Shown: positions 4,653-59,758 of the stretch, one piece after another
Layout: each line of letters starts with the position of its first letter
How positions within the stretch are numbered: the first letter of the stretch is position 1
Sequence record: NC_052655.1
Strand: one strand, 5' to 3'
DNA from: Escherichia phage alia
Length of the DNA: 64,000 nt
Notes under the pieces: model-generated
Databases searched by the model: none
Told to the model about the DNA's origin: nothing
The model's input: only the letters and a program-made list of their open reading frames with translations
Translations under genes and position numbers: made by a program

Positions 4653-4681
4653 TTGACACCGGATCACGCTTACATTATTAT
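4653..4681 (+). promoter_or_regulatory. sigma70-like promoter (TTGACA, 17 nt spacer, TATTAT)
   Basis: TTGACA 4653-4658, 17-nt spacer, TATTAT 4676-4681. Confidence 0.5.
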
Positions 4682-4727
4682 TTATCACGTAGGGCAAATC
4701 ATTTTAAACGGTAAACGAGGAAACACC

Positions 4728-5111
4728 ATGAGCAATATCATCAACCTGGCGGCTACTGTAAACGGTAAAGATTTTAACGGCGCTGTAGATCGTGATCCTA
4801 TGTGGTGCTTATCAGTGTTTAAAGGCGATCTGGTTGAAGTTAGAACAACCGAAGGGTATAGCGATGATTATAAATGCGAGATCCATTTACATAACTGGTA
4901 CACGGGTAAAACTTATGCGCTGAATCATGCGTTTATCGGGAAAATTGAATATCGCGAGATGATCGACGAAGAAACGGGGCAAGATTTTAGCGAGCATGTT
5001 TATATTCGTTCAGAAACATTAGCCGAACGTTTGATCGAGAAAATGAAAGCAAAAAATAAAATTAATTTATCTCATTGGATTGATATAACAAACGATCCGG
5101 CTTATCAGTAA
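4728..5111 (+). CDS. hypothetical protein (127 aa)
   Basis: ORF track 4653..5111 begins inside the promoter; ATG 4728 with GAGGAAACACC RBS chosen. Confidence 0.55.
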   Translation: MSNIINLAATVNGKDFNGAVDRDPMWCLSVFKGDLVEVRTTEGYSDDYKCEIHLHNWYTGKTYALNHAFIGKIEYREMIDEETGQDFSEHVYIRSETLAERLIEKMKAKNKINLSHWIDITNDPAYQ

Positions 5112-5127
5112 ATAACATTTCATACAA

Positions 5128-5153
5128 GGGCGCTTATTGCGCCCTTTCTTTTT
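5128..5153 (+). terminator. rho-independent terminator
   Basis: GGGCGC-TTATT-GCGCCC hairpin followed by TTTCTTTTT. Confidence 0.6.
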
Positions 5154-5357
5154 ACCTAAATAAAGATGATAGCTTTTACCTATCAAAAACGTTCACCGAA
5201 AAAAGTGAATAGATCGCGGTATCGAGCTAATCAAGGAGCAGATGAACAACCATACCATGAAGATCATAAGGCGCTTACAGCGTGTTTTAGACCGCTTATT
5301 TTTAATTTCTTCATGTAACTATCTGGCAAAAACAGCCTTTTTCTTGTCTTTCCTCTT

Positions 5358-6488
5358 AAATGATAATCATTCTTATTTATAGCTGATTATTTATGCAATA
5401 AACTGCATAATGCAATAATGATAATCATTCTTAACTTAAGACCATCTAACTTATAAAATAATAAGTTATCTAACTAAATTAAAGCTAATTATCTTACTTT
5501 TATTTATAACATACTGTTACTATCTTATTGATAACCTTATATTAAACAACAATAATCAATGTAAATCATTACTAAGCTAACTATAATCTATCTAACCCTT
5601 AAAACTACAATTATAATCTATCAAATTGTTGCACAAAGTAACTATTAAATTGTTAGTAACATTGCTAAATAATTAATATCCTATCTATTTATGATCTAAT
5701 CTTTACCTCCCTATCTATTACCTAAATAACCATTTCATGTGGTAATCATTTCATACAATAACTATAACAAGAAATATAATTCGCAAGCGTATCATTAGCA
5801 GCCTATGCCGGACACATAGGCGGCTAATAATAACGCAACTACACACCCCACATAATAACCATCACCGATAGTTATTATTTGTGCTTATGTAGCTTGCAAC
5901 AATTGCAAGCGCAACAATATACATGGTATATTGTATCCCTTACATTGTTGCGGTGCGTTATTATTAGCTAATGTTTAGAACATTGGCTATAATATAAGCT
6001 AAGTAATAAGCTAGTCAATAATAAACATAATGAATAATGACATTAATGATCATAATGCGCCACCCTCCAGGGGGCGCTATGTGAACACAAAGAAATCATT
6101 CTTGTCAAGAAAAATATCACCCTATTGCGCAAAATTATTTATATCTGAATAGATGATTTTTCATACTATTGCCCCCTATAACATACCTCATTTGTTGAGC
6201 CTACTTTCTTAAAAGCGCAATAAAGTAGAATTATCTTGATTTTTAGTCGGTTTTATAGTACAGAAAGTATGCAAATGATAATCATTATCAGCTATCCTCC
6301 AGGGTGGCACTATTTCACGCCAGATCATTTCATTTGGCAAGGTGTATATAGATGTTTAGAAATGCCAAGCCATTGATTTACTTAGAATTTATCTGTTTTG
6401 TTGTGAGTAGTACCTTTCTTGCTTAGAAAATAATCAAAAGTCTTATAAGTCATTGAATGATAATGCAAATGATAATTATTCTCATTGA
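5358..6488. repeat. AT-rich non-coding region with iteron-like repeats (core AATGATAATCATT) and repeated CCTCCAGGG(G/T)G(C/G)CAC motif
   Basis: Copies of (A)AATGATAATCATT(C/A)T near 5358, 5415, 6269 and 6455 (degenerate copy near 5741); CCTCCAGGGGGCGCTAT at 6064 and CCTCCAGGGTGGCACTAT at 6297. No credible ORF. Confidence 0.55.
5803..5965. repeat. palindrome-rich segment (hairpin GCCTATG...CATAGGC; inverted TAATAATAACGCAAC / GCGTTATTATTAGC)
   Basis: Read directly from sequence: 7-bp inverted repeat at 5803-5826 and longer inverted repeat arms flanking 5830-5960 with the central TTGCAACAATTGCAA palindrome. Confidence 0.45.
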
Positions 6489-6604
6489 TATTTGAGGGGG
6501 ACGGTCGGCAGAAATCGGGGGGCGCTGAAAATCGCGTTAAGCACCTCTCGCAAGCGAGCAGTATTTTGCGGCAAGTTATTGATATTATTGACTTTACGCT
6601 TATG

Positions 6605-6711
6605 AAAAGGGGTGTGTCGAAATAAATCGGGTATACCGGAAAATTTTTTGTGGCATAGATATTTATTTGTCTATATTATGTACAAAGGGGTGTGTTAAAA
6701 ATAATAGGTAT
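6605..6711. repeat. direct repeat AAAGGGGTGTGT-(N)-AAATAA-(N)-GGTAT, two copies
   Basis: AAAAGGGGTGTGTCGAAATAAATCGGGTAT (6605-6634) and CAAAGGGGTGTGTTAAAAATAATAGGTAT (6683-6711). Confidence 0.5.
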
Positions 6712-6779
6712 ATATAGAATAATTGATAGGGAAATCCTATACTAAATCCTTCATTAATGATGTTCCTATGTTGCTGTTC

Positions 6780-6808
6780 TTGTAACAGATGAAAAGACGC
6801 TGTATGAT
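6780..6808 (+). promoter_or_regulatory. candidate promoter for the downstream plus-strand gene array
   Basis: TTGTAA 6780-6785, 17-nt spacer, TATGAT 6803-6808; lies upstream of the first gene of the array (ATG 6932). Confidence 0.35.
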
Positions 6809-6931
6809 GTGTAGCATGAGACGTAAATTTATAAGATGCAAATAATGCTTGCATTGAATAGAAATGTCTGTACACTGTGTTCCATAAGATATGCAATATC
6901 GCGCATAACAAACTACTAATGAGAGGTGTAA

Positions 6932-7249
6932 ATGAGAACCTTAGCTTTGTATATTGATCCTCACTCCATTCGAGAAATGCGAGATGTACAACAGGATTAT
7001 GAATTCTACCCAGAAATTTGTGAACGCTATGAAACTATTCTTAGTTCTGTAGAAGATCCAGATACTAGTGAAACAGGTGCTTCCCACTTACTGTGGATGT
7101 TGAATGAAATTCAGGATGGGTGTAATGATATGTCTGAAACCAAACGCCATCGTTGGCTAGGCTATATTCAGGGTGTTATGGTTATGAAAAACCTTATTAC
7201 AGTGAACGATGAACGTAACGCTACACGCCCCGTCTTTAATGGAGCATAA
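6932..7249 (+). CDS. hypothetical protein (105 aa)
   Basis: ORF track; GAGAGG RBS; first gene of a co-directional packed array. Confidence 0.55.
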   Translation: MRTLALYIDPHSIREMRDVQQDYEFYPEICERYETILSSVEDPDTSETGASHLLWMLNEIQDGCNDMSETKRHRWLGYIQGVMVMKNLITVNDERNATRPVFNGA

Positions 7250-16722: not shown

Positions 16723-16896
16723 ATGTTCAAAGATACCAATTATAAATGTGTACATTGTGGTAAATCTTTTGGTGATCACCAAGCTAAGACGTTCAATTGT
16801 CCACGAAAAGGGCGAGGTAGCTTTAAAGGTTTTAATCCATCCCACGTTTATTCTCCCAACTACGAGAAACCAGAAGAAGAAAAATTTGTAATCTGA
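16723..16896 (+). CDS. small Cys-pair protein (57 aa), possible zinc-ribbon
   Basis: AAGGAGAG 6 nt upstream of ATG 16723; translation MFKDTNYKCVHCGKSFGDHQAKTFNCPRKG... has CxxC plus a third Cys. Preferred over the overlapping track ORF 16694..16891 (different frame, no RBS). Confidence 0.45.
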   Translation: MFKDTNYKCVHCGKSFGDHQAKTFNCPRKGRGSFKGFNPSHVYSPNYEKPEEEKFVI

Positions 16897-28798: not shown

Positions 28799-29551
28799 TT
28801 AATATACTTCCGTGATGAACTGAGACAAACGGGAACGTTGGTTATCAGCAGTTGTCATTTCAACATAACCAATAAAATCTACAATAGCTTCCCTTTCTCC
28901 TTCTTCGTTAATAGGAACAACACGATCTAACAAATCACCTAACCCGTTAGCTCTTCGTTTAATTGCATATGTTTGATTAACATCACCCATAATGACAATA
29001 CGTGTATTAAGACCTGCTCGCTCAAGGAGAAGTTTTACTGTGTTTGGTGACATAAGTTGAACTTCATCAATAAGAATAATGCTGTTATCCCACGTAGCAC
29101 CTAGTGCATAGTTCGGAATATTAAGTTCAATTTTTCCACTTGCAATATCGTTTTCCAATTTATTTGCAGTCATAAACTGTTGGAAAATTCTTTTAGTTGA
29201 CTCGTAGTGTGCTGCTAGTTTATCAGTCTTATCTCCAGATAAGAAACCGATTTGGTCATCACCTACTTCTGTCGGGTTTTTAAGGAAAATCAACTTTCTG
29301 AAGTCACCAGCTTTAAGCATTTGCAATGCTTTCCATAGTGCTGTTGTCGTTTTTCCTGTTCCTGCTGGGGCATTAACAATGGTTAAATCATTCCAAACCA
29401 TGCTTCTTACAATAGCTTCTTGATTCCCAACAGGGGTAAATTCATCAAGACGGTAATCATCATTTCCTACTGCTTTAGCCGCATAACGACTGGCACGTTT
29501 GTCATCATTGGCTGCTGATTGACGACGAGCCTTTGCGGTTTTATTTCCCAT
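28799..29551 (-). CDS. phoH: PhoH-like ATPase
   Basis: Walker A NAPAGTGKTT, Walker B IILIDEVQ, and MGDVNQT motif typical of the PhoH family. Confidence 0.85.
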   Translation of the reverse strand: MGNKTAKARRQSAANDDKRASRYAAKAVGNDDYRLDEFTPVGNQEAIVRSMVWNDLTIVNAPAGTGKTTTALWKALQMLKAGDFRKLIFLKNPTEVGDDQIGFLSGDKTDKLAAHYESTKRIFQQFMTANKLENDIASGKIELNIPNYALGATWDNSIILIDEVQLMSPNTVKLLLERAGLNTRIVIMGDVNQTYAIKRRANGLGDLLDRVVPINEEGEREAIVDFIGYVEMTTADNQRSRLSQFITEVY

Positions 29552-29566
29552 GTTTGCACTCCTTAT

Positions 29567-29588
29567 AAAAGGGGCTTTCGCCCCTTTG
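29567..29588 (-). terminator. terminator hairpin (GGGGCTTTCGCCCC family) directly followed by RBS
   Basis: AAAGGGGC-TTTC-GCCCCTTT between lysozyme stop and phoH start; minus-strand U-run then AAGGAG RBS. Confidence 0.45.
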
Positions 29589-29589
29589 T

Positions 29590-30090
29590 TTAGTTATAAG
29601 CGTCTAATGTTCCAGTTTTAAGCACCTGAATTACACGCTCTGCGCGATTAGGCGTTTGGCGATACCATTTACTTTTACGTAAATTTATAGAGGCTTGAGT
29701 ATAATATGAATTACTCACTAAAGTCAAGCTATTTTTGAAAGATTCTGCACCTTTCAATCCCATTTGAAATACCATATTAATAATAGCCATTTTACGATTA
29801 GGACTTACTTTATCGTAAATAGGAGATAGTATGGTACTTGAATGGATTTGTTGTATCGCTTTCTTTACGTCACCCTCAAAGATTTTTCTAGCTTCCGCTT
29901 CAGTAATAACCCCATTAGTTTTTCTACCTACTAAGTTATCAAGAATGCGTATAGCTTCTGATTTATCTTTAAGTTTTGTCAGAAGGTGTCCAATACCAAC
30001 CGTCCAATACCCTTCGGTATCAGTATATACAGTTAGCTTTAGTCCTTCATCAAAACGTAACATATCAAACACATCAACTACTTTAGCCAT
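29590..30090 (-). CDS. T4-type lysozyme (GH24 endolysin)
   Basis: MLRFDEGLKLTVYTDTEGYWTVGIGHLLT and C-terminal KSKWYRQTPNRAERVI are near-identical in pattern to phage T4 lysozyme (catalytic Glu/Asp/Thr triad positions conserved). Confidence 0.9.
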   Translation of the reverse strand: MAKVVDVFDMLRFDEGLKLTVYTDTEGYWTVGIGHLLTKLKDKSEAIRILDNLVGRKTNGVITEAEARKIFEGDVKKAIQQIHSSTILSPIYDKVSPNRKMAIINMVFQMGLKGAESFKNSLTLVSNSYYTQASINLRKSKWYRQTPNRAERVIQVLKTGTLDAYN

Positions 30091-30102
30091 GTTTTCCTTA
30101 TA

Positions 30103-30246
30103 TTAGTCGCCCTCCCCATGATCTAGCTCTTGAAACAGTAGGTGTTCAGGAGACATTTCACGTTTAGGCTTCGTCTTTTTAGTTTGGGACTTAAGCTCTG
30201 TTGCCAAAGCACGAGAAAAGATCTTACGTTTCTGTTTACCTTTCAT
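30103..30246 (-). CDS. small basic protein (47 aa)
   Basis: Not in ORF track. Minus-strand GGAG RBS then ATG; translation MKGKQKRKIFSRALATELKSQTKKTKPKREMSPEHLLFQELDHGEGD. Confidence 0.35.
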   Translation of the reverse strand: MKGKQKRKIFSRALATELKSQTKKTKPKREMSPEHLLFQELDHGEGD

Positions 30247-30250
30247 ATTG

Positions 30251-30517
30251 TTACTCCGCAATCTGAGCCATGAATTCACGTAGTTCAGAAAAACCTCCTA
30301 CGTGGGTTAGCTGTTCACCATCTTCCACAAAAATCTGAGGGAATGTGCGTGGTAGAACACCTGTTTTCTCTAAAACCAGATTCTGAAGCTGATCTAAAGA
30401 ATAGTCTTCATCTAAGGTAAGATATTTAAAATCCTGTTCACGCTGTTCCAGTAGAATCTTAGCGTTAGTGCAGAAAGGACAATTTGGTTTACCGTAGATA
30501 ATAAAATTCATTTTCAC
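30251..30517 (-). CDS. glutaredoxin/NrdH-like redoxin
   Basis: Active-site CPFC at residues 13-16 in an 88-aa thioredoxin-fold-sized protein; located beside the nucleotide-metabolism genes. Confidence 0.8.
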   Translation of the reverse strand: MKMNFIIYGKPNCPFCTNAKILLEQREQDFKYLTLDEDYSLDQLQNLVLEKTGVLPRTFPQIFVEDGEQLTHVGGFSELREFMAQIAE

Positions 30518-31344
30518 TCCTTGTTTAAAAGTATAGTTAAAGTTCTTACAATACCGCTATCAACACTTCGCGGATTTAAAGTAGGATCTGTTTTTAAATA
30601 AGATGTTGCTGGTCTGACTGCTTTAGAATTATAGGTTGAAGCAGATACAGGATTAACTGTAACAGATAAATCTATAACAAGAAATATCTTACGTGCAAAA
30701 TCATACCAAGAAATATAATCTGCACCTGCATAGTGTACAATTTTACTATTTACACCATCTTTTACAAGTTTAAAAATTGTTTCTGCCAGATCAGGTGCAT
30801 AAGTAGGACATGATAAATGATCACATACTACATTAAATTCTTTTTGACCACCGTTGTAGCGTTCCAACATAGTTTTCAAAAAGTTATGTCCAAATTCACT
30901 ATAAACAGAAGCTGTTCTGATAATAAGTGCTGTAGGACAAACTGTTTGTACTAAAGTTTCACCTAATTGTTTACTGTAACCGTAGGTGTTCAAGGGGTTT
31001 GTTTCACTATCTTCTGTGCCAGCAACATGCCCATCAAAAACATAGTCTGTTGAAATATGTACAAACTGTATCAGTAAATCATTACATGCTTTGGCAATGT
31101 TTGTTGCACCGTATGCATTAACATTTATACAGGTGTTAACATCTTCTTCAGCTTTATCTACTGCTGTGTAAGCCGCACAATTCACAACAACATCAGGCAC
31201 ATGCTGTACAAGACTATTCATAACATCTTTAAAGTTGGTAATGTCTACATCACTTGCTTCAATCAAAATAACATCTTCGGGCGCAACTTTTGCCAAAGAC
31301 TGTCCTAATTGACCTTTTGAACCAAAGATTAAAAATTTTGTCAA
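30514..31344 (-). CDS. rmlD: dTDP-4-dehydrorhamnose reductase
   Basis: N-terminal FLIFGSKGQLGQ Rossmann motif, length 276 aa, last gene of the rmlB-A-C-D order. Confidence 0.8.
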   Translation of the reverse strand: MTKFLIFGSKGQLGQSLAKVAPEDVILIEASDVDITNFKDVMNSLVQHVPDVVVNCAAYTAVDKAEEDVNTCINVNAYGATNIAKACNDLLIQFVHISTDYVFDGHVAGTEDSETNPLNTYGYSKQLGETLVQTVCPTALIIRTASVYSEFGHNFLKTMLERYNGGQKEFNVVCDHLSCPTYAPDLAETIFKLVKDGVNSKIVHYAGADYISWYDFARKIFLVIDLSVTVNPVSASTYNSKAVRPATSYLKTDPTLNPRSVDSGIVRTLTILLNKE

Positions 31345-31895
31345 AATATGATCTCCTTTAGTGTTTTGGCTTGCTGATCTTTTTGTGACAAGATAGGTTT
31401 AAAATTAATATCATTAAAGATTAAATCAAAACCCCAATCTATATTGATATCTGGATCATTCCACGCAAGACTACACTCTGAAGTCGGATCGTAATATTCT
31501 GTACATTTATATTCAAAATCAGCAATGTCGCTAATCACAACAAAGCCATGAGCGAAACCAGGAGGAATCCAAAATTGTGTTTTATTCTTTTCAGATAAGA
31601 GAACACCTACCCATTCTCCAAATGTTGGACTACCAACCCTAATATCTACAGCAACATCATAAACTTCACCACGAACACAACGTACTAACTTCCCTTGTGG
31701 GTTTTTCTTTTGAAAATGAAGCCCACGTAGAACTCCTCGAATAGAACGTGAATGGTTATCTTGGACAAAGTTTTGTTTACCTATGTATTGATCATATAAA
31801 GCCTGATTAAAACTTTCTAAGAAAAAACCACGTTCATCTCCGTAAACGTCAGGTTGAATGATCAACAAATCTTCGATTTTTGTTGCTTGAATCAT
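31341..31895 (-). CDS. rmlC: dTDP-4-dehydrorhamnose 3,5-epimerase
   Basis: 184-aa cupin; ERGFFLESF and LRGLHFQ motifs characteristic of RmlC. Confidence 0.85.
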   Translation of the reverse strand: MIQATKIEDLLIIQPDVYGDERGFFLESFNQALYDQYIGKQNFVQDNHSRSIRGVLRGLHFQKKNPQGKLVRCVRGEVYDVAVDIRVGSPTFGEWVGVLLSEKNKTQFWIPPGFAHGFVVISDIADFEYKCTEYYDPTSECSLAWNDPDINIDWGFDLIFNDINFKPILSQKDQQAKTLKEIIF

Positions 31896-31906
31896 TTAAT
31901 TCCCCC

Positions 31907-32776
31907 TTATTTTAATTTAAGTAAATACTTACCGTAGTCTGTTTTACTTAAAACCTCTCCAGAACTTTTTACAGAGTCTAAAGTAATCCATTCATTTTTA
32001 AAAGCAATCTCTTCTAGGCATGCAACCTTCATACCTTGTTGCTTTTCTATTGCATGAACAAATTGAGATGCTTCCATAAGACTTTCATGTGTTCCTGTAT
32101 CCAGCCAAGTGAAACCTCTTCCTAGTTTACAGACACGTAAAGCCTTTTCTTTCCAGTACATCTCATTTATATCTGTAATCTCTAACTCCCCTCTAGCAGA
32201 AGGTTTAACGCTCTTAGCTTTCTGTATAACAGAATTATCGTAAAAGTACAAGCCTGTAATTGCATAGTTGCTTTTTGGTGCTTTTGGTTTTTCCTCAATA
32301 CTCACCACTGTACCTTCAGAATCAAACTCAACAACACCAAATCTTTCAGGATCATTTACGTGATACCCAAAAATATTAGCTCCACCATTCTTTTCAATAT
32401 GTTCTTTAGCAGAATCTAAAATGCTACCAAAACTCTGACCAAAGAATAAATTATCACCTAGCACAAGTGCTACAGAATCTTCACCAATAAAGTTCTCACC
32501 AATAATAAAGGCTTCTGCTAAACCTTTTGGACTGTTCTGTACTGCATACTGTAGGGAAACACCAAAAGAAGAACCATCACCTAAAAGATTTACAAAATTA
32601 ATTTGATCTTCTGGTGTTGTAATTATTAGTATTTCCCTAATTCCAGAAAGCATTAGGACAGAGAGTGGATAATAAATCATAGGCTTATCGTAAATTGGTA
32701 ATAGTTGTTTACTAACCCCTTTAGTAACTGGGTAAAGTCTTGTTCCGCTACCACCTGCTAAGATAATACCTTTCAT
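31907..32776 (-). CDS. rmlA: glucose-1-phosphate thymidylyltransferase
   Basis: N-terminal [18 protein letters not shown] (G-x-G-T-R-L nucleotidyltransferase signature), 289 aa. Confidence 0.9.
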
Positions 32777-32784
32777 ACTCCTCC

Positions 32785-33774
32785 TTAAACTTTATTTTCC
32801 CACCACTCTTTGTTATCTACATACCAATCAATGGTTGAATAAAGTTTTTCTTCAAATGTGCCTTTAGCTTTCCACCCTAATTCCTTTTCGATCTTATAAG
32901 GATTCACTTCATATCTCAGATCATGCCCAGGTCTATCTGTAACCATCTCAATTAGGCTACAAGCATCTGTTTCAGATGGATACACCGCATCCATATAATC
33001 ACAAATCATATAGATTACATCAATATTAGTTCTAGGGTTTCTGCTCCCAATATTATATGTTTCTCCAGATTTGCCTTTAGTTACTACTAGGTGTAATGCT
33101 TCTGCGTGATCGTCAACGTATAACCAGTCTCTTACTTGAAGACCATTGCCATAAACAGGGATTGGTTTATTCATCAAGATATTTGTTATCGTTTTAGGTA
33201 TTAGTTTTTCTGGATGATGATATGCTCCAAAATTATTTGAACAATTTGTTAGAACTGTCGGAATACCATAAGTACGATGCCACGCTCTTACCAAATGATC
33301 GCTTGCTGCCTTAGATGCAGCATATGGACTACTTGGCTTATAAGGATTCTGTTCTGTAAACGGATAATCCCCCTCTTCCATATCACCATATACTTCATCT
33401 GTTGAAATATGATGGAACATTTTAAGATTTGATTTATCTCCCATTAAACGAACAGCTTCTAGGAGATTAAATGTCCCAACAATATTTGAATTTATAAAAA
33501 CACTCGGTGATGCTATTGAATTATCTACGTGACTTTCTGCTGCAAGATGCATTATATAATCTGGATTAACATCTGCCACAATCTTAGCAGTTAACTGCGC
33601 ATTTGTCAAGTCAACACGACAAAACTTTACATTGGGTGTTTCTGATAAATTTCTAGGGTCTGAAGCGTAACCCCATTTATCTATAACGTAAATATCATTT
33701 TTAGTATTTTTAGCCAGGAAACGAACTACCGCACTTCCAATAAAGCCTAAACCACCTGTTACTAAGTATTTCAT
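32785..33774 (-). CDS. rmlB: dTDP-glucose 4,6-dehydratase
   Basis: N-terminal [12 protein letters not shown] Rossmann motif; SDR Tyr/Lys catalytic pair (YAASKAA); 329 aa. Confidence 0.85.
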
Positions 33775-57263: not shown

Positions 57264-57271
57264 TATTCAAG

Positions 57272-57347
57272 GTTCCATAGCTCACTGACGAGAGCGCACA
57301 CCTCATAAGTGTCGAGGGCAGGGATTGTAACCCTGGGGAACCACCAT
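57272..57347 (+). tRNA. tRNA-Met/Ile2 (anticodon CAT)
   Basis: Hand-folded cloverleaf: acceptor GGTTCCA/GGGAACC (one mismatch), anticodon loop CTCATAA, 3' CCA encoded. Confidence 0.55.
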
Positions 57348-57377
57348 TTAAAAGGAGGTGCTATGCATCTCCTATAT

Positions 57378-57463
57378 GCAAGTGTGGTGGAATTGGTGAT
57401 ACACATTGTGCTTAAAACGCAACGCTTAAATGCTTGAGGGTTCGAATCCCTCCACTTGCACCA
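57378..57463 (+). tRNA. tRNA-Leu (anticodon TAA)
   Basis: Acceptor GCAAGTG/CACTTGC, anticodon stem TTGTG/CGCAA with loop CTTAAAA, long variable arm, T-loop GGTTCGAATCC, CCA encoded. Confidence 0.7.
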
Positions 57464-57478
57464 ACACCTAAAAATATC

Positions 57479-57507
57479 TTGACATTTACTTAGTTTTTTG
57501 TTATAGT
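57479..57507 (+). promoter_or_regulatory. sigma70-like promoter inside the tRNA cluster
   Basis: TTGACA 57479-57484, 17-nt spacer, TATAGT. Confidence 0.5.
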
Positions 57508-57518
57508 CGTTATGAAAA

Positions 57519-57600
57519 CGGGGTGTATCTCACCTGACTTCTAATCAGGCGTTAACCGAGTAATTGGAGTATGCAGGTTCGAATCCTGTCACCCCGGCCA
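57519..57600 (+). tRNA. atypical tRNA-like gene (possible anticodon TCT)
   Basis: Perfect acceptor CGGGGTG/CACCCCG and T-arm GCAGG-TTCGAAT-CCTGT with CCA, but only one internal hairpin (CCTGA-CTTCTAA-TCAGG) and no recognisable D-arm; isotype uncertain. Confidence 0.4.
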
Positions 57601-57618
57601 AAAAGTTTTAAAAACTAC

Positions 57619-57647
57619 TTGACAAGCAAGATAGTTTTATGTTAGAT
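57619..57647 (+). promoter_or_regulatory. sigma70-like promoter inside the tRNA cluster
   Basis: TTGACA 57619-57624, 17-nt spacer, TTAGAT. Confidence 0.45.
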
Positions 57648-57663
57648 TTAAAGTATGATAACG

Positions 57664-57753
57664 GGAAGGTAGGGCGCAGCGGTGCGCAACCAGGTTTGAA
57701 CCCTGGCCCATTGTAGCGATACGGTGATGGTTCGACTCCATTATCTTCCTCCA
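57664..57753 (+). tRNA. tRNA-Ser (anticodon TGA)
   Basis: Acceptor GGAAGGT/ATCTTCC (G-U at pair 6), anticodon stem CCAGG/CCTGG with loop TTTGAAC, long variable arm, T-loop GGTTCGACTCC, CCA encoded. Confidence 0.65.
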
Positions 57754-57798
57754 AATTCAATTAGTAACAGATTCAGGTTGTTTTGAATAATTAAAAAT

Positions 57799-57884
57799 GG
57801 TAGATTGGTGAAATGGTAGCCACAACAGTTTGCTAAACTGTCGTCGGAAACGGCGTGTAGGTTCAAGTCCTACATCTACCGCCA
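57799..57884 (+). tRNA. tRNA-Ser (anticodon GCT)
   Basis: Acceptor GGTAGAT/ATCTACC, anticodon stem ACAGT/ACTGT with loop TTGCTAA, long variable arm, T-loop GGTTCAAGTCC, CCA encoded. Confidence 0.7.
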
Positions 57885-58054
57885 AGTTATCTTTAATGTA
57901 GCTTGTTGCTCTTAGTTGCTTGGTGTAACTTTTTGGAAGAATGGCTGCAACCATCTTACTTTAATAGAGTAAACTTTCGGCAGATGGCCCCCACCATCTT
58001 ACCGATACCTCATAGTCAGTGGTGCGAACACTGGCTATTTTAAAGATAATTTAT

Positions 58055-58129
58055 ACATCGTTAGCCAAGCGGTAAGGCACTTGACTTTTAATCAAGGGAG
58101 CGAAGGTTCGAATCCTTCACGATGTACCA
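58055..58129 (+). tRNA. tRNA-Lys (anticodon TTT)
   Basis: Acceptor ACATCGT/ACGATGT, anticodon stem CTTGA/TCAAG with loop CTTTTAA, T-loop GGTTCGAATCC, CCA encoded. Confidence 0.65.
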
Positions 58130-58134
58130 AACAC

Positions 58135-58221
58135 GTAGGTATCGCATAGCGGCAATTGCTGGAGACTGTAAATCTCCTGCCCTTCGGGGCTTCGTTGGTT
58201 CGAGTCCAACTACCTGCACCA
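58135..58221 (+). tRNA. tRNA-Tyr (anticodon GTA)
   Basis: Acceptor GTAGGTA/TACCTGC (one G-U), anticodon stem GGAGA/TCTCC with loop CTGTAAA, long variable arm, T-loop GGTTCGAGTCC, CCA encoded. Confidence 0.65.
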
Positions 58222-58228
58222 AATTAAA

Positions 58229-58313
58229 GATGGATTGGCCTAGTGGTTGGGCGACGGACTGTTAATCCGTGAACGAAAGTTCTAGCAAGGTTCAAATCCT
58301 TGATCCATCGCCA
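58229..58313 (+). tRNA. tRNA-Asn (anticodon GTT) with unusually long variable region
   Basis: Acceptor GATGGAT/ATCCATC, anticodon stem ACGGA/TCCGT with loop CTGTTAA, extra hairpin GAAC-GAAA-GTTC in the variable region, T-loop GGTTCAAATCC, CCA encoded. Confidence 0.55.
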
Positions 58314-58392
58314 AATAGTGCTTGTAGAGTTAATAGAAACCTCTAGAATTTTCTAGAATTGTAGGTATCAAACCCTACCAAGCAAATATTTT

Positions 58393-58467
58393 GCTCCTAT
58401 CGTATAACGGCTATTACGGTTGCCTTGTAAGCAACTTATCAGGGTTCGAGTCCTTGTGGGAGCACCA
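58393..58467 (+). tRNA. tRNA-Thr (anticodon TGT)
   Basis: Acceptor GCTCCTA/TGGGAGC (one G-U), anticodon stem GTTGC/GCAAC with loop CTTGTAA, T-loop GGTTCGAGTCC, CCA encoded. Confidence 0.7.
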
Positions 58468-58489
58468 ATTTAACTCTAAAGGAGTGTAT

Positions 58490-58813
58490 GTGACAGAAAA
58501 AGAGTTAGAGAAATATTTTAATATCAATGTTTTCGATGGTTTTGATGCTATTGAAGATGTTGAAAGATATTATGAAGTAGAGTTAGATAAGGATAACATT
58601 GTAATTCTTTCTGCCACTTATGATTGTGCATATTATGAAGGCGAATCTCACGTTTATTTCTATGATATGAAAACATCTTTGTTTTATGAAGTACACGCAT
58701 ATCATTGTTCTTGTTATGGCTTAGAAGGTCAGTGGGAACCTGAAGAAATAGGTGATTTGAGCTTTACGGTTGCATATCTAAACAGACGTGGCGCATCTAC
58801 TATTTTAAAATAA
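58490..58813 (+). CDS. hypothetical Cys-rich protein embedded in the tRNA cluster (107 aa, GTG start)
   Basis: ORF track 58391..58813 overlaps tRNA-Thr; start moved to GTG 58490, 5 nt after AAGGAG. C-terminal YHCSCYG cysteines. Confidence 0.5.
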   Translation: MTEKELEKYFNINVFDGFDAIEDVERYYEVELDKDNIVILSATYDCAYYEGESHVYFYDMKTSLFYEVHAYHCSCYGLEGQWEPEEIGDLSFTVAYLNRRGASTILK

Positions 58814-58827
58814 ATATTAAAAGCCTC

Positions 58828-58856
58828 TTGACAAAGGGGCTAATAATATGTTAGAG
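58828..58856 (+). promoter_or_regulatory. sigma70-like promoter inside the tRNA cluster
   Basis: TTGACA 58828-58833, 17-nt spacer, TTAGAG (TAATAT alternative). Confidence 0.45.
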
Positions 58857-58868
58857 TAATATTGTTAA

Positions 58869-58943
58869 GCGGGTATAGTGTTAATGGTAGCATATGAGGT
58901 TTCCACCCTCCAGGTGCAGGTTCAAGTCCTGTTACTCGCTCCA
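58869..58943 (+). tRNA. tRNA-Gly (anticodon TCC)
   Basis: Acceptor GCGGGTA/TACTCGC (one G-U), anticodon loop TTTCCAC, T-loop GGTTCAAGTCC, CCA encoded. Confidence 0.6.
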
Positions 58944-59042
58944 AGATTATTTAAATGGAATCGCTAGAGAAAATTTCTCTTTTCGCTCATGGTTTTCTCC
59001 TTCAAACTCTAGCGGTTCTTTTTAAGTGATTTTTAGTTTTAT

Positions 59043-59117
59043 TGGAGATTAGCCTAGTGGGAAGGCAACGGCCTTTGAAGTCGTGATGACTAGGTTCGAT
59101 TCCTAGATCTCCAGCCA
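59043..59117 (+). tRNA. tRNA-Gln (anticodon TTG)
   Basis: Acceptor TGGAGAT/ATCTCCA, anticodon stem ACGGC/GTCGT with loop CTTTGAA, T-loop GGTTCGATTCC, CCA encoded. Confidence 0.65.
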
Positions 59118-59124
59118 ATATTTA

Positions 59125-59200
59125 CAGTGCGTAGCGCAGTTGGTAGCGTGGGAGCTTTGGATGCTTCGGGTCGCAGGTTCGAGTCCTGCCGCACTGACCA
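59125..59200 (+). tRNA. tRNA-Pro (anticodon TGG)
   Basis: Acceptor CAGTGCG/CGCACTG, anticodon stem GGAGC/GCTTC with loop TTTGGAT, T-loop GGTTCGAGTCC, CCA encoded. Confidence 0.7.
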
Positions 59201-59205
59201 AATTT

Positions 59206-59280
59206 GCAGAGATAGCTGAGACGGATTAGTGCTACCCTGAAAAGGTAGAAAGGATGGATCGTTACCATCTCTCTGCACCA
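59206..59280 (+). tRNA. tRNA-Phe (anticodon GAA) with non-canonical T-loop
   Basis: Acceptor GCAGAGA/TCTCTGC, anticodon stem CTACC/GGTAG with loop CTGAAAA, T-arm GATGG-ATCGTTA-CCATC (not the usual TTCGAAT), CCA encoded. Confidence 0.55.
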
Positions 59281-59357
59281 AATAACACCATCCAAGGAGT
59301 AGACTTGGTTAACTGTCAATAGCACATTGAGGCTTCTTACAGTGGTGTACTTATTAT

Positions 59358-59442
59358 GGCTAAGTGGTGGAATGGTATACACGATACGCTTAGAACGTAT
59401 TGCCCCAAGGGATTGTGAGTTCGAGTCTCACCTTAGCTACCA
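59358..59442 (+). tRNA. tRNA-Leu (anticodon TAG)
   Basis: Acceptor GGCTAAG/CTTAGCT (G1-U72), anticodon stem ATACG/CGTAT with loop CTTAGAA, long variable arm, T-loop GAGTTCGAGTCTC, CCA encoded. Confidence 0.65.
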
Positions 59443-59457
59443 AATTATTACAGGTTT

Positions 59458-59536
59458 CGCGGGATAGAGGAGTCTGGTCGTCCTCGCCAGTTTCATATGC
59501 TGGAGATCATCGGTTCGAATCCGATTTCCGCCTCCA
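59458..59536 (+). tRNA. tRNA-Met/Ile (anticodon CAT), C1/C72 mismatch
   Basis: Anticodon stem CCAGT/GCTGG with loop TTCATAT, T-arm ATCGG-TTCGAAT-CCGAT, CCA encoded; first acceptor pair is C-C, and D-loop is long. Confidence 0.5.
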
Positions 59537-59613
59537 ATAAATACCTCCATTCTGGTGTAATGATTAAATTACATTGACACTTCAAGGAACTCATAGCCGG
59601 GTAGATTTAAAAG

Positions 59614-59680
59614 AGTATGGTACTCAATATGGCTCCAAACCATAGATCAGGGGGTTCGATTCCTCACCTTGCTGCCAATT
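59614..59680 (+). tRNA. degenerate or D-arm-less tRNA-like element (possible anticodon CCA, Trp)
   Basis: Canonical T-loop GGTTCGATTCC and 3' GCCA, internal hairpin TATGG-CTCCAAA-CCATA, but acceptor pairing is imperfect and no D-arm fits; only about 64 nt before CCA. Confidence 0.3.
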
Positions 59681-59682
59681 AT

Positions 59683-59758
59683 TGTGGTATCGTACAGATG
59701 GTTAGTACACTCGACCGATAATCGAGAAACAACGGTTCGACTCCGTTTACCACGACCA
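59683..59758 (+). tRNA. tRNA-Ile (anticodon GAT)
   Basis: Acceptor TGTGGTA/TACCACG (T1-G72), anticodon stem CTCGA/TCGAG with loop CCGATAA, T-loop GGTTCGACTCC, CCA encoded. Confidence 0.6.

Follow-up and report, generated by a model that had tools for sequence, protein, structure and literature searches.

A phi92-type terminal repeat region with Fur-box-like sites and a multi-hairpin element in Escherichia phage alia

The genomes of the subfamily Stephanstirmvirinae terminate in direct terminal repeats, according to a taxonomic paper (PMC12695924). A terminal repeat of 328 bp is given by the authors of the Schickermooser genome (PMC6563267), and one of 342 bp was reported from PhageTerm for BME3 (PMC12210895). 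Here, we analyse the stretch at positions 5150-6930 of a window of 64,000 nucleotides from Escherichia phage alia (record NC_052655.1; one strand, 5' to 3'), where homology places a repeat of this kind together with sites resembling the boxes of the host regulator Fur and a multi-hairpin element. The terminal repeat of phi92-like phages is already known, and most of our finding is ordinary genome-end biology. Within this known kind of region, the array of Fur-like sites and the covarying hairpin element seem not to have been described so far, and we found no published account of either.

Several described systems are relevant to such a region. In phage T7, the terminal repeat measures 160 bp, processing signals flank it, promoters lie near the genome ends, and a hairpin intermediate has been proposed. 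The terminal repeat of T5 spans ~10 kb, carries pre-early genes, and ends at the injection-stop signal. The stx1 promoter is an example of Fur-regulated phage cargo. Another is sitABCD on lambdoid coliphages (PMC6969025), and our full-text literature search for Fur boxes or Fur-binding sites in phages returned only cargo-gene cases such as this one. The models of concatemer processing and repeat duplication in T7 have been summarised elsewhere, with the hairpin form of the repeat DNA cited (PMC4281155).

The terminal repeat and the gene-free stretch

By homology, the stretch carries a short direct terminal repeat of the phi92 type with conserved boundaries. The phi92 record (NC_023693) annotates two mutually identical repeats of 343 bp, PHI92_DTR-L and DTR-R, and this sequence maps to the window with 96.8% identity over 343 nt, which gives the following feature.

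6198-6539, plus strand: direct terminal repeat of 342 bp, present in the window as one copy into which the two end copies are collapsed.

The record of Schickermooser, a Phapecoctavirus and thus from a different genus, sequenced in a different laboratory, has an exact 329-bp repeat at its start and end, with termini at homologous positions, and the record of PHB05 ends exactly one base before 6198. The boundary motifs, TGTTG/AGC on the left and CGCGTTA/AGC on the right (the slash marks the boundary), are both found in 19 relatives, including metagenomic contigs, at 329-412 bp from each other. The two boundaries are alike (GTTG/AGC and GTTA/AGC), which fits site-specific cutting at both edges of the repeat. 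The gene order around the repeat is also that of phi92, i.e., the repeat lies between the last and the first genes. A packaging site or terminus was among the functions proposed for this region in the preliminary description, which had been made from the sequence, and this option is borne out by the homology to the phi92-type repeat and by the conserved boundaries.

The surroundings of the left boundary vary between lineages. In most of the others (L006, L008, L018, L025, and L034), a short hairpin rich in GC, with stems that differ by lineage, precedes TGTTG/AGC by 5-8 nt and is itself preceded by TTTGGGGGCGAA (examples are CCGCCACAGGCGG and GCCCACGAAGTGGGC). The lineage of the window lacks this hairpin and has GCCCCC there instead (6167-6197).

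The stretch is widespread among related phages. In a megablast search, 42 phage records covered at least 80% of the 1851-nt query, the best of them at 92-97% identity, and all 42 are phi92-like or phAPEC8-like myoviruses of the subfamily Stephanstirmvirinae. In the annotated relatives, the flanks consist of a homologue of Phi92_gp248, the last phi92 gene, on one side and of the first phi92 genes on the other. Going by these matches, the phage to which the stretch belongs is a phi92-like myovirus (Justusliebigvirus). A T5-like phage, the first guess arising from the idea of an injection-stop signal, was rejected because all the matches are to phi92-like or phAPEC8-like myoviruses. A blastn search of 5,426 genomes of E. 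coli revealed no place covering at least 80% of the query, the listed matches being a marginal 74-nt stretch (E = 4e-3), so that capture of the stretch from the host is rejected. Among all matches, the closest ones (MG065639, MG065645, MG065656, and MG065689; 96.7% identical) are labelled 'Campylobacter phage' with C. jejuni as host. This label looks doubtful and perhaps results from contamination or a mix-up.

The region had been singled out as a gene-free, AT-rich stretch of 1.8 kb and as the largest non-coding one in the window. Its lack of genes is confirmed: no open reading frame (ORF) of at least 90 aa interrupts positions 5112-6931, the five small ORFs tested in the stretch had no match among PHROG families, and the indels in the alignment with other genera are not multiples of three. 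We therefore rejected these small ORFs as genes, given the lack of PHROG matches and the reading frames broken between genera. The AT-richness is equally clear, with a GC content of 0.30 at 5001-6000 and of 0.34 at 6001-7000, against ~0.37 in the whole window; the GC skew is negative at 5001-6000. The rank of the stretch depends on the cutoff. It is the longest part of the window that has no ORF of at least 60 aa in any frame (5112-6662), and it comes second to the tRNA cluster (56.5-58.4 kb) when the cutoff is set to 90 aa. The only other large ORF-less part of the window contains 15 tRNA genes on the top strand (57271-59758). The size of the gene-free stretch also differs by strain: between the first early gene and the direct repeats described below, Paula, inny, and the Phapecoctavirus genomes have two additional ORFs (homologous to phAPEC8_0018 and 0019) that are absent from the window (about 6760-6833) and from arall.

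The Fur-box-like sites

Copies of a near-palindromic core of the AATGATAATCATT type were located by a repeat finder at 5358, 5416, 6273, and 6467. To score them, we counted mismatches to the 19-bp consensus of the E. coli Fur box, GATAATGATAATCATTATC. Of the 22 sites of the window with at most five mismatches, seven are in the stretch (5356, 5414, 6033, 6271, and 6459/6465/6471), including the best ones. Only the sites at 5414 and 6271 have at most three mismatches in the whole window, where 0.09 are expected by chance. These counts were not attained, at any cutoff, in any of 2000 shuffles that preserved the dinucleotides of the region itself. The phage sites thus scored have 2, 3, 4, 5, and 5 mismatches (14-17 of 19 positions matching), and we calibrated these values with the same scan of the ent-fep cluster of E. 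coli K-12, whose intergenic regions with known Fur operators gave 3 and 4 mismatches for fepD-entS, 4 and 4 for fepB-entC, and 6 for fepA-fes. Judged by this scale, the AATGATAATCATT cores are look-alikes of Fur boxes of operator quality. The sites and the inverted repeat between the first two are as follows.

5356-5374, unstranded: Fur-like site 1, TTAAATGATAATCATTCTT, with 5 mismatches (consensus scan).
5392-5410, unstranded: conserved inverted repeat TATGCA-N7-TGCATA between Fur-like sites 1 and 2 (repeat finder and alignment).
5414-5432, unstranded: Fur-like site 2, AATAATGATAATCATTCTT, with 3 mismatches (consensus scan).
6033-6051, unstranded: weak Fur-like site with 5 mismatches, in a part poorly conserved between genera.
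6271-6289, unstranded: Fur-like site 3, GCAAATGATAATCATTATC, with 2 mismatches (17/19), inside the terminal repeat.
6453-6492, unstranded: extended Fur-like array (site 4), TTGAAT GATAAT GCAAAT GATAAT TATTCT CATTGA, made of contiguous GATAAT-type hexamers.

Site 3 and the site 4 array are thus inside the terminal repeat. The 16-nt core of site 3, AAATGATAATCATTAT, is identical to that of the E. coli K-12 site at locus position 16838, between fepB and entC; it carries the 7-1-7 inverted repeat form TGATAATcATTATCA, and other lineages have a Fur-like palindrome at the same position. The site 4 array gives three hits in 6-nt phase (6459, 6465, and 6471) and ends ~50 bp before the right genome end. 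Site 2 abuts a promoter-like match (TTAACT-17-TAAAAT at 5431-5459, 9/12) and is less conserved in Phapecoctavirus.

We compared the sites between Justusliebigvirus, Phapecoctavirus, the phiWec186 group, the Klebsiella phage KP2025, and four groups of metagenomic contigs. Two of them are kept in every lineage. One is ~360-475 nt left of hairpin H3 of the element described in the next section, i.e., in the neighbourhood of site 1, where each lineage has a Fur-like site with 3-4 mismatches. The other is 65-75 nt before the right end of the repeat and corresponds to the site 4 array, found in all lineages with 2-4 mismatches and with a lineage-specific sequence (e.g., GATAATGATAATCATTCGC and GATAATGAGAATGATTCGC). 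The sequences of the kept sites therefore vary with the lineage and stay within 2-4 mismatches of the consensus. In summary, the sequences and their conserved positions support the suggestion, made in the preliminary description, of a dense array of protein-binding sites. Among its options, packaging was right and the binding array came close.

The multi-hairpin element and its surroundings

The second feature of interest is a structured element left of the repeat. Its components are given below.

5801-5968, unstranded: single-copy multi-hairpin element, from compensatory changes, folding, and a covariance model.
5801-5821, unstranded: hairpin H1, perfect in all 18 sequences.
5823-5837 with 5954-5968, unstranded: closing stem P1, whose 15-nt arms are 100% complementary (repeat finder).
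5839-5842 with 5889-5892, unstranded: P2, a helix of the model.
5855-5875, unstranded: hairpin H2, a helix of the model.
5893-5909, unstranded: hairpin H3, GCTTGCAA-N3-TTGCAAGC, with an invariant sequence.
5910-5915 with 5947-5952, unstranded: H4, a helix of the model.

We collected 18 distinct versions of the element, from GenBank phages, IMG/VR, and metagenomes. On the top strand, they share six helices with 48 pairs, in which 97.2% of the cells are paired and 14 pairs have changed on both sides; none of 500 shuffles reached these values. When the partners are slid, pairing falls to 22-47% on the top strand (22-53% in the slid controls overall). P1 and H1 are made up entirely of Watson-Crick pairs in all 18 sequences, without a single wobble pair, and they change by double substitutions; H2 has been rebuilt from wholly different sequences among lineages. 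The sequence of H3 is invariant, suggesting recognition by a protein, and its two halves can also pair with the 3' arm of H4 in an alternative helix. The fold z-scores range from -6.2 to -8.8 (-8.2 when folded as DNA). According to the covariance model, the window has a single copy (152.9 bits), whereas positions 1-50000 of phi92 have none. The element is confined to the right genome end, where it lies 230 bp to the left of 6198. The palindromic segment first noticed at 5803-5965 is thus real and extends over 5801-5968, with perfectly complementary arms of 15 nt. We regard as well supported that this is a structured element with compensatory changes, apparently undescribed.

Which strand folds is less easily read from the alignment. 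The consensus fold of the bottom strand has 53 pairs, with 97.9% of the cells paired and 15 covarying pairs. In all 18 sequences, this strand folds more stably than the other, by 14-24 kcal/mol, and with a more extreme z-score. Over the whole consensus, there are ~92 G-U cells on the bottom strand versus 7 on the top one, and the alternative helix of the bottom strand shows covariation between the 'loop' bases of H3 and the 3' arm of H4. A strand call from the wobble pairs of the core helices was discarded as ambiguous (7 G-U cells on the top strand and ~6 on the bottom one), so that the bottom strand is favoured by the folding of the whole element and by the helix extensions only. From its sequence, the element may act either as an RNA, with the bottom strand favoured, or as single-stranded DNA.

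We searched for relatives of the element outside these phages. With Rfam 15 and permissive E-values, positions 4900-7100 matched no family, the best hits having E-values of 0.5-5 and scores far below the gathering thresholds, and none of them covering the hairpin element convincingly. In bacterial genomes (596 Gb), the H3 palindrome has seven matches, roughly as many as chance would give, and with the covariance model these reach E = 0.04 at best. Of its 18 matches in metagenomes, ten lack the P1 stem arm, and the five of these ten that were scanned with the covariance model have a best E-value of 0.75. A distribution of the element beyond phages was set aside on these results.

The remaining features of the stretch are the following, from left to right.

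5126-5146, plus strand: intrinsic terminator of the last right-arm gene, the Phi92_gp248 homologue (ORF 4653-5111), from the terminator scan.
5166-5240, unstranded: conserved non-coding block with a GATAGC..CTATC inverted repeat followed by TGAATAGATCGCGGTATCGAGCTAATCAA (alignment).
5440-5790, plus strand: AT-rich, G-poor spacer of ~350 nt (6% G, 17% C, and 77% A+T on the top strand).
5989-6018, minus strand: best sigma-70-like match of the region, TTGACT-16-TATATT (10/12; hexamers from 6018 to 5991), pointing leftwards into the hairpin element.
6236-6264, plus strand: candidate promoter, TTGATT-17-TACAGA, 38 nt inside the left genome end, from the recurrence of the pattern.
6494-6518, plus strand: direct repeat copy 1, (R)GGGG..GAAAT..CGG, the weakest, 68% identical to the reference copy and located within the terminal repeat, close to its right boundary.
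6606-6630, plus strand: direct repeat copy 2, AAAGGGGTGTGTCGAAATAAATCGG, conserved in Phapecoctavirus.
6684-6723, plus strand: direct repeat copy 3 (6684-6708) and the promoter-like match that it overlaps, TTAAAA-17-AATAAT (6695-6723), upstream of the early operon.

The terminator is conserved in all five aligned phages and annotated as such in Paula and phAPEC8. The block that follows it is nearly invariant between Justusliebigvirus and Phapecoctavirus, with 1-nt indels. No run without G in the window is longer than the one at 5577-5627, in the spacer. The low G content of the spacer (4-12%, against 18% in the window) is kept in the 19 distinct relatives, all those compared, although its sequence cannot be aligned between genera. 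The ~230 nt between the hairpin element and the repeat are poorly conserved between genera.

Promoter-like matches are no more numerous in the region than expected from shuffles (14 versus 13.0). Leftward ones occur near the hairpin element. On the bottom strand, a -10-like hexamer located 0-25 nt right of P1 is among the two best matches in 17 of the 23 lineages listed, which is weak evidence in AT-rich DNA; no terminator for a candidate RNA was found. At the position of the candidate promoter 6236-6264, the pattern TTGAYT-17-TAnAnA recurs in most lineages, and Fur-like site 3 starts at about the transcription start predicted from this conserved but weak candidate promoter.

The direct repeats noticed earlier at 6605 and 6683 are confirmed at 6606-6630 and 6684-6708, with a further, weaker copy at 6494-6518. 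The two former share AAAGGGGTGTGT..AAATAAT..GGTAT, which is conserved, and the block GGTGT.AAAAATAAT.GGTATATAT.G.ATAATTGATAGG at the third copy is nearly invariant between genera. The early operon begins at 6932. Straddling the right boundary, the three repeats are candidates for terminase binding or for tandem promoters. The third copy and its promoter-like match are spanned by the second-longest C-free run of the window (52 nt, 6684-6735).

Other motifs were searched for in the region. The 9-mer CCTCCAGGG, previously reported as a repeated motif, is indeed present twice (6064 and 6296), but this is about the number expected by chance in 1.8 kb and the motif is not conserved: it is changed to CTTCCACGGG in phi92 and arall and is absent in Phapecoctavirus. 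The motif GGGTGTGTYRAAAWAAT was rejected as a genome-wide promoter motif, with only two local copies in 64 kb. DnaA boxes, Chi sites, and the T7 class II pause signal are absent or at chance level. The core of the latter, ATCTGTT (class II pause/termination), occurs inside the repeat at 6391-6397, and its two copies in the region, against 0.9 expected, together with its lack of conservation in Phapecoctavirus, point to chance. The IHF consensus WATCAANNNNTTR has three matches (5619, 6366, and 6572), against 0.28 expected from the density in the window, and the match within the repeat (6366) is also kept by phAPEC8, ukendt, and ZCKP1.

Explanations and comparison with known systems

Homology, boundary conservation, the quality and positions of the Fur-like sites, and the covariation of the hairpin element are direct observations. 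We think it likely that they reflect a genome-end junction with a collapsed 342-bp repeat, cutting at its boundaries, and occupancy of the ends by Fur. The stretch would be the right-end/left-end junction of a linear, terminally redundant genome, assembled with the repeat copies collapsed. Its left part would be the untranslated right end of the chromosome, with the terminator, the pair of Fur-like sites, the G-poor spacer, and the multi-hairpin element. Its right part would be the early operon leader, in which two conserved repeats in tandem overlap promoter-like matches. Replication would produce concatemers with one repeat per junction, and the packaging machinery would cut them at GTTG/AGC and GTTA/AGC, releasing unit genomes while the repeat is duplicated as in T7. 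Since the AATGATAATCATT cores are of operator quality, iron-loaded Fur would be expected on both ends of the incoming DNA and on every junction. Its most likely effect would be the iron-dependent repression of terminal transcription, given the site at the start of the candidate promoter, 38 bp from the left end. Alternatively, Fur might have an architectural role in end processing, like IHF at lambda cosB, or be titrated by the replicating DNA. Phi92 encodes a class Ia ribonucleotide reductase, NrdA and NrdB (28845-32904), which is iron-dependent and provides a possible rationale for titration.

Some observations weigh against parts of this explanation. The termini of this phage are deduced from its relatives, and cutting at both boundaries in this particular phage is presumed. 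In BME3 (PP239276), the annotated 342-bp 'DTR-L' (146957-147298) is shifted 73 bp to the right of the boundaries of phi92 and Schickermooser; this repeat contains N bases, and the sequence beside one of its ends, in the region of hairpin H1, is not collinear with the window. For these reasons, we rejected BME3 as an independent check of the boundaries and use it in support of the repeat length only. The BME3 record seems permuted or misjoined at its annotated repeat. The binding of Fur to the phage sites is predicted from sequence similarity, with any regulatory consequence of it putative, and repression of an early promoter in iron-replete conditions would have no obvious benefit for a lytic phage. 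The -10 box of the candidate promoter, TACAGA, is poor, without the usual final T, and the promoter was not called by the scan. Finally, half-sites change together in some lineages, from TGATAAT..ATTATCA to TGAGAAT..ATTCTCA.

Such coupled changes also fit a dimeric regulator encoded by the phage, of which the AATGATAATCATT cores would be the operators, their resemblance to Fur boxes being a coincidence of AT-rich palindromes. The adjacent early operon of phi92 has several annotated genes for predicted transcription regulators (gp005, gp026, and gp027). Yet, site 3 matches the Fur consensus at 17 of 19 positions and has the very core of the fepB-entC site, site 4 has the array of hexamers typical of strong Fur operators, and the variants of all lineages stay at 2-4 mismatches from the consensus. 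The TGAGAAT half-site itself occurs in the known aerobactin Fur operator. We thus hold a phage-encoded regulator to be rather unlikely. The idea that the stretch is a functionless spacer, with repeats produced by chance in AT-rich DNA, could draw on the unremarkable number of promoter-like matches and on the chance-level CCTCCAGGG repeat; it is refuted by the conservation of blocks between genera, the enrichment of Fur-like sites, the covariation, and the architecture kept in metagenomic relatives, and we give it practically no weight. An injection-stop site was another early proposal; one of the T5 type would separate a first-step-transfer segment from the rest of the genome. The region is superficially T5-like, being large, non-coding, rich in repeats and palindromes, and next to blocks of small early genes. 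However, the terminal repeat has only 342 bp and no genes, and the phage belongs to an unrelated subfamily of myoviruses, which leaves this proposal unsupported and highly improbable.

Two further explanations concern the hairpin element. It might work as single-stranded DNA in the processing of concatemers, either as a T7-like hairpin intermediate or as a structure recognised by the terminase. Chung and Hinkle (1990) reportedly placed the T7 hairpin beside the repeat and gave it a role in duplication. The element is likewise an inverted repeat just left of the terminal repeat at the right genome end, where it is found in single copy, as expected of a T7-type intermediate. Its wobble-free P1 and H1, its z-score of -8.2 as DNA, the invariance of H3, which suggests a protein partner, and the hairpin form of T7 repeat DNA cited in PMC4281155 are all compatible with this role. 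Against it, the asymmetry of wobble positions favours one folded strand, which is more typical of RNA, though G-T pairs also form in DNA. We regard this role as possible but doubtful.

Somewhat less credible is an origin of replication primed by a transcript, which is compatible with the stretch also being a genome end. A leftward RNA starting right of the element would fold, enter the AT-rich spacer, and prime DNA synthesis there; the spacer RNA, rich in G relative to C, might form a stable RNA-DNA hybrid, as in ColE1 RNA II or the T4 origins. The strongest promoter-like match of the region is directed leftwards, towards the element, -10-like boxes are 0-25 nt from P1 in most lineages listed, the bottom strand is the more stable one and holds most G-U cells, and the strand-asymmetric composition of the spacer is conserved without conservation of its sequence. 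On the other hand, -10-like hexamers are frequent by chance in AT-rich DNA, and no terminator or processing site was identified. The preliminary description had spoken of iterons and of an origin. The AATGATAATCATT-type copies are real, and the region has an AT-rich spacer of 350 nt; they are nonetheless not iterons of the origin type and the wording is unsupported as it stood, because their spacing is irregular (58, 857, and 194 bp) where an iteron origin has regular repeats and an initiator gene, because the neighbouring genes encode small proteins annotated as hypothetical with no initiator annotated among them, and because a search of the region for DnaA boxes found none. The cumulative GC skew, proposed as a check and computed on the 64-kb window, shows no turn at the stretch beyond a local dip due to the G-poor spacer; the large turns at ~18 kb and ~54 kb follow gene orientation.

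Taken together, one could imagine Fur as a cofactor used across a subfamily of virulent coliphages, gating the first promoter by iron or being soaked up by hundreds of replicating ends, along with a leftward structured RNA that primes replication in a G-skewed, AT-rich tract; we consider this combination improbable. If Fur does bind the ends, the iron status of the host would be directly tied to the start of infection or to end processing, and these genomes would show how, in nature, a lytic phage can exploit or titrate a global regulator of its host by means of non-coding DNA. A Fur sponge would, if true, de-repress the iron uptake of the host and feed the iron-dependent ribonucleotide reductase of the phage. 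The phages concerned are a broad-host-range group under development for therapy. Whether the hairpin element is RNA or DNA bears on the duplication of the repeat and on the start of replication in large myoviruses with short repeats.

Among known systems, the repeats of phi92 and Schickermooser are the closest, being alike in homologous sequence, length class (342 bp here, versus 343 and 329 bp), boundary motifs, and neighbouring genes. They differ in that the window has a single internal copy, since the circular assembly was opened elsewhere. Their records and accessible papers describe nothing inside or beside the repeat.

The T7 concatemer junction shares with this stretch a short direct repeat without genes, whose two boundaries have similar short sequences, as well as promoter-like elements close to the ends and, at the right genome end, an inverted-repeat element to the left of the repeat. 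There is no sequence similarity between them, and here the phage is a myovirus of ~146 kb that is assumed to use the host RNA polymerase. Furthermore, the element is a multi-branched covarying structure of 170 nt, not a simple palindrome, and the single ATCTGTT of the repeat (6391) is an unconserved, chance-level occurrence. The lambda cos site (cosQ-cosN-cosB) resembles it in that direct repeats, here at 6494, 6606, and 6684 and possibly sites of the small terminase subunit, lie on one side of the cut site, and in having host DNA-binding-protein sites beside the cut, to which the excess of IHF-consensus matches (three versus 0.28) may be likened. It differs in that the ends here are terminal repeats rather than cohesive ends, and the host-protein sites are Fur-like rather than IHF sites. 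The T5 injection-stop region is also long and non-coding, with repeats and palindromes in the vicinity of a terminal repeat, but the long, gene-bearing repeat that defines it is absent here.

The Fur operators of E. coli (fepB-entC and fepD-entS) are matched by the phage sites in quality (14-17 of 19 positions), in their contiguous hexamer arrays, and by an identical core. The phage sites, however, belong to the terminal repeat of a virulent phage and do not precede an iron-uptake gene, and they have neither a clear overlapping -35/-10 pair nor a gene of iron function downstream. The Fur-regulated cargo of temperate phages offers the same picture of phage DNA whose Fur boxes join the iron regulon of the host. 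There, the boxes control accessory genes that benefit the lysogen, whereas here the Fur-like boxes belong to the replication and packaging backbone of a lytic phage and show conservation across its subfamily.

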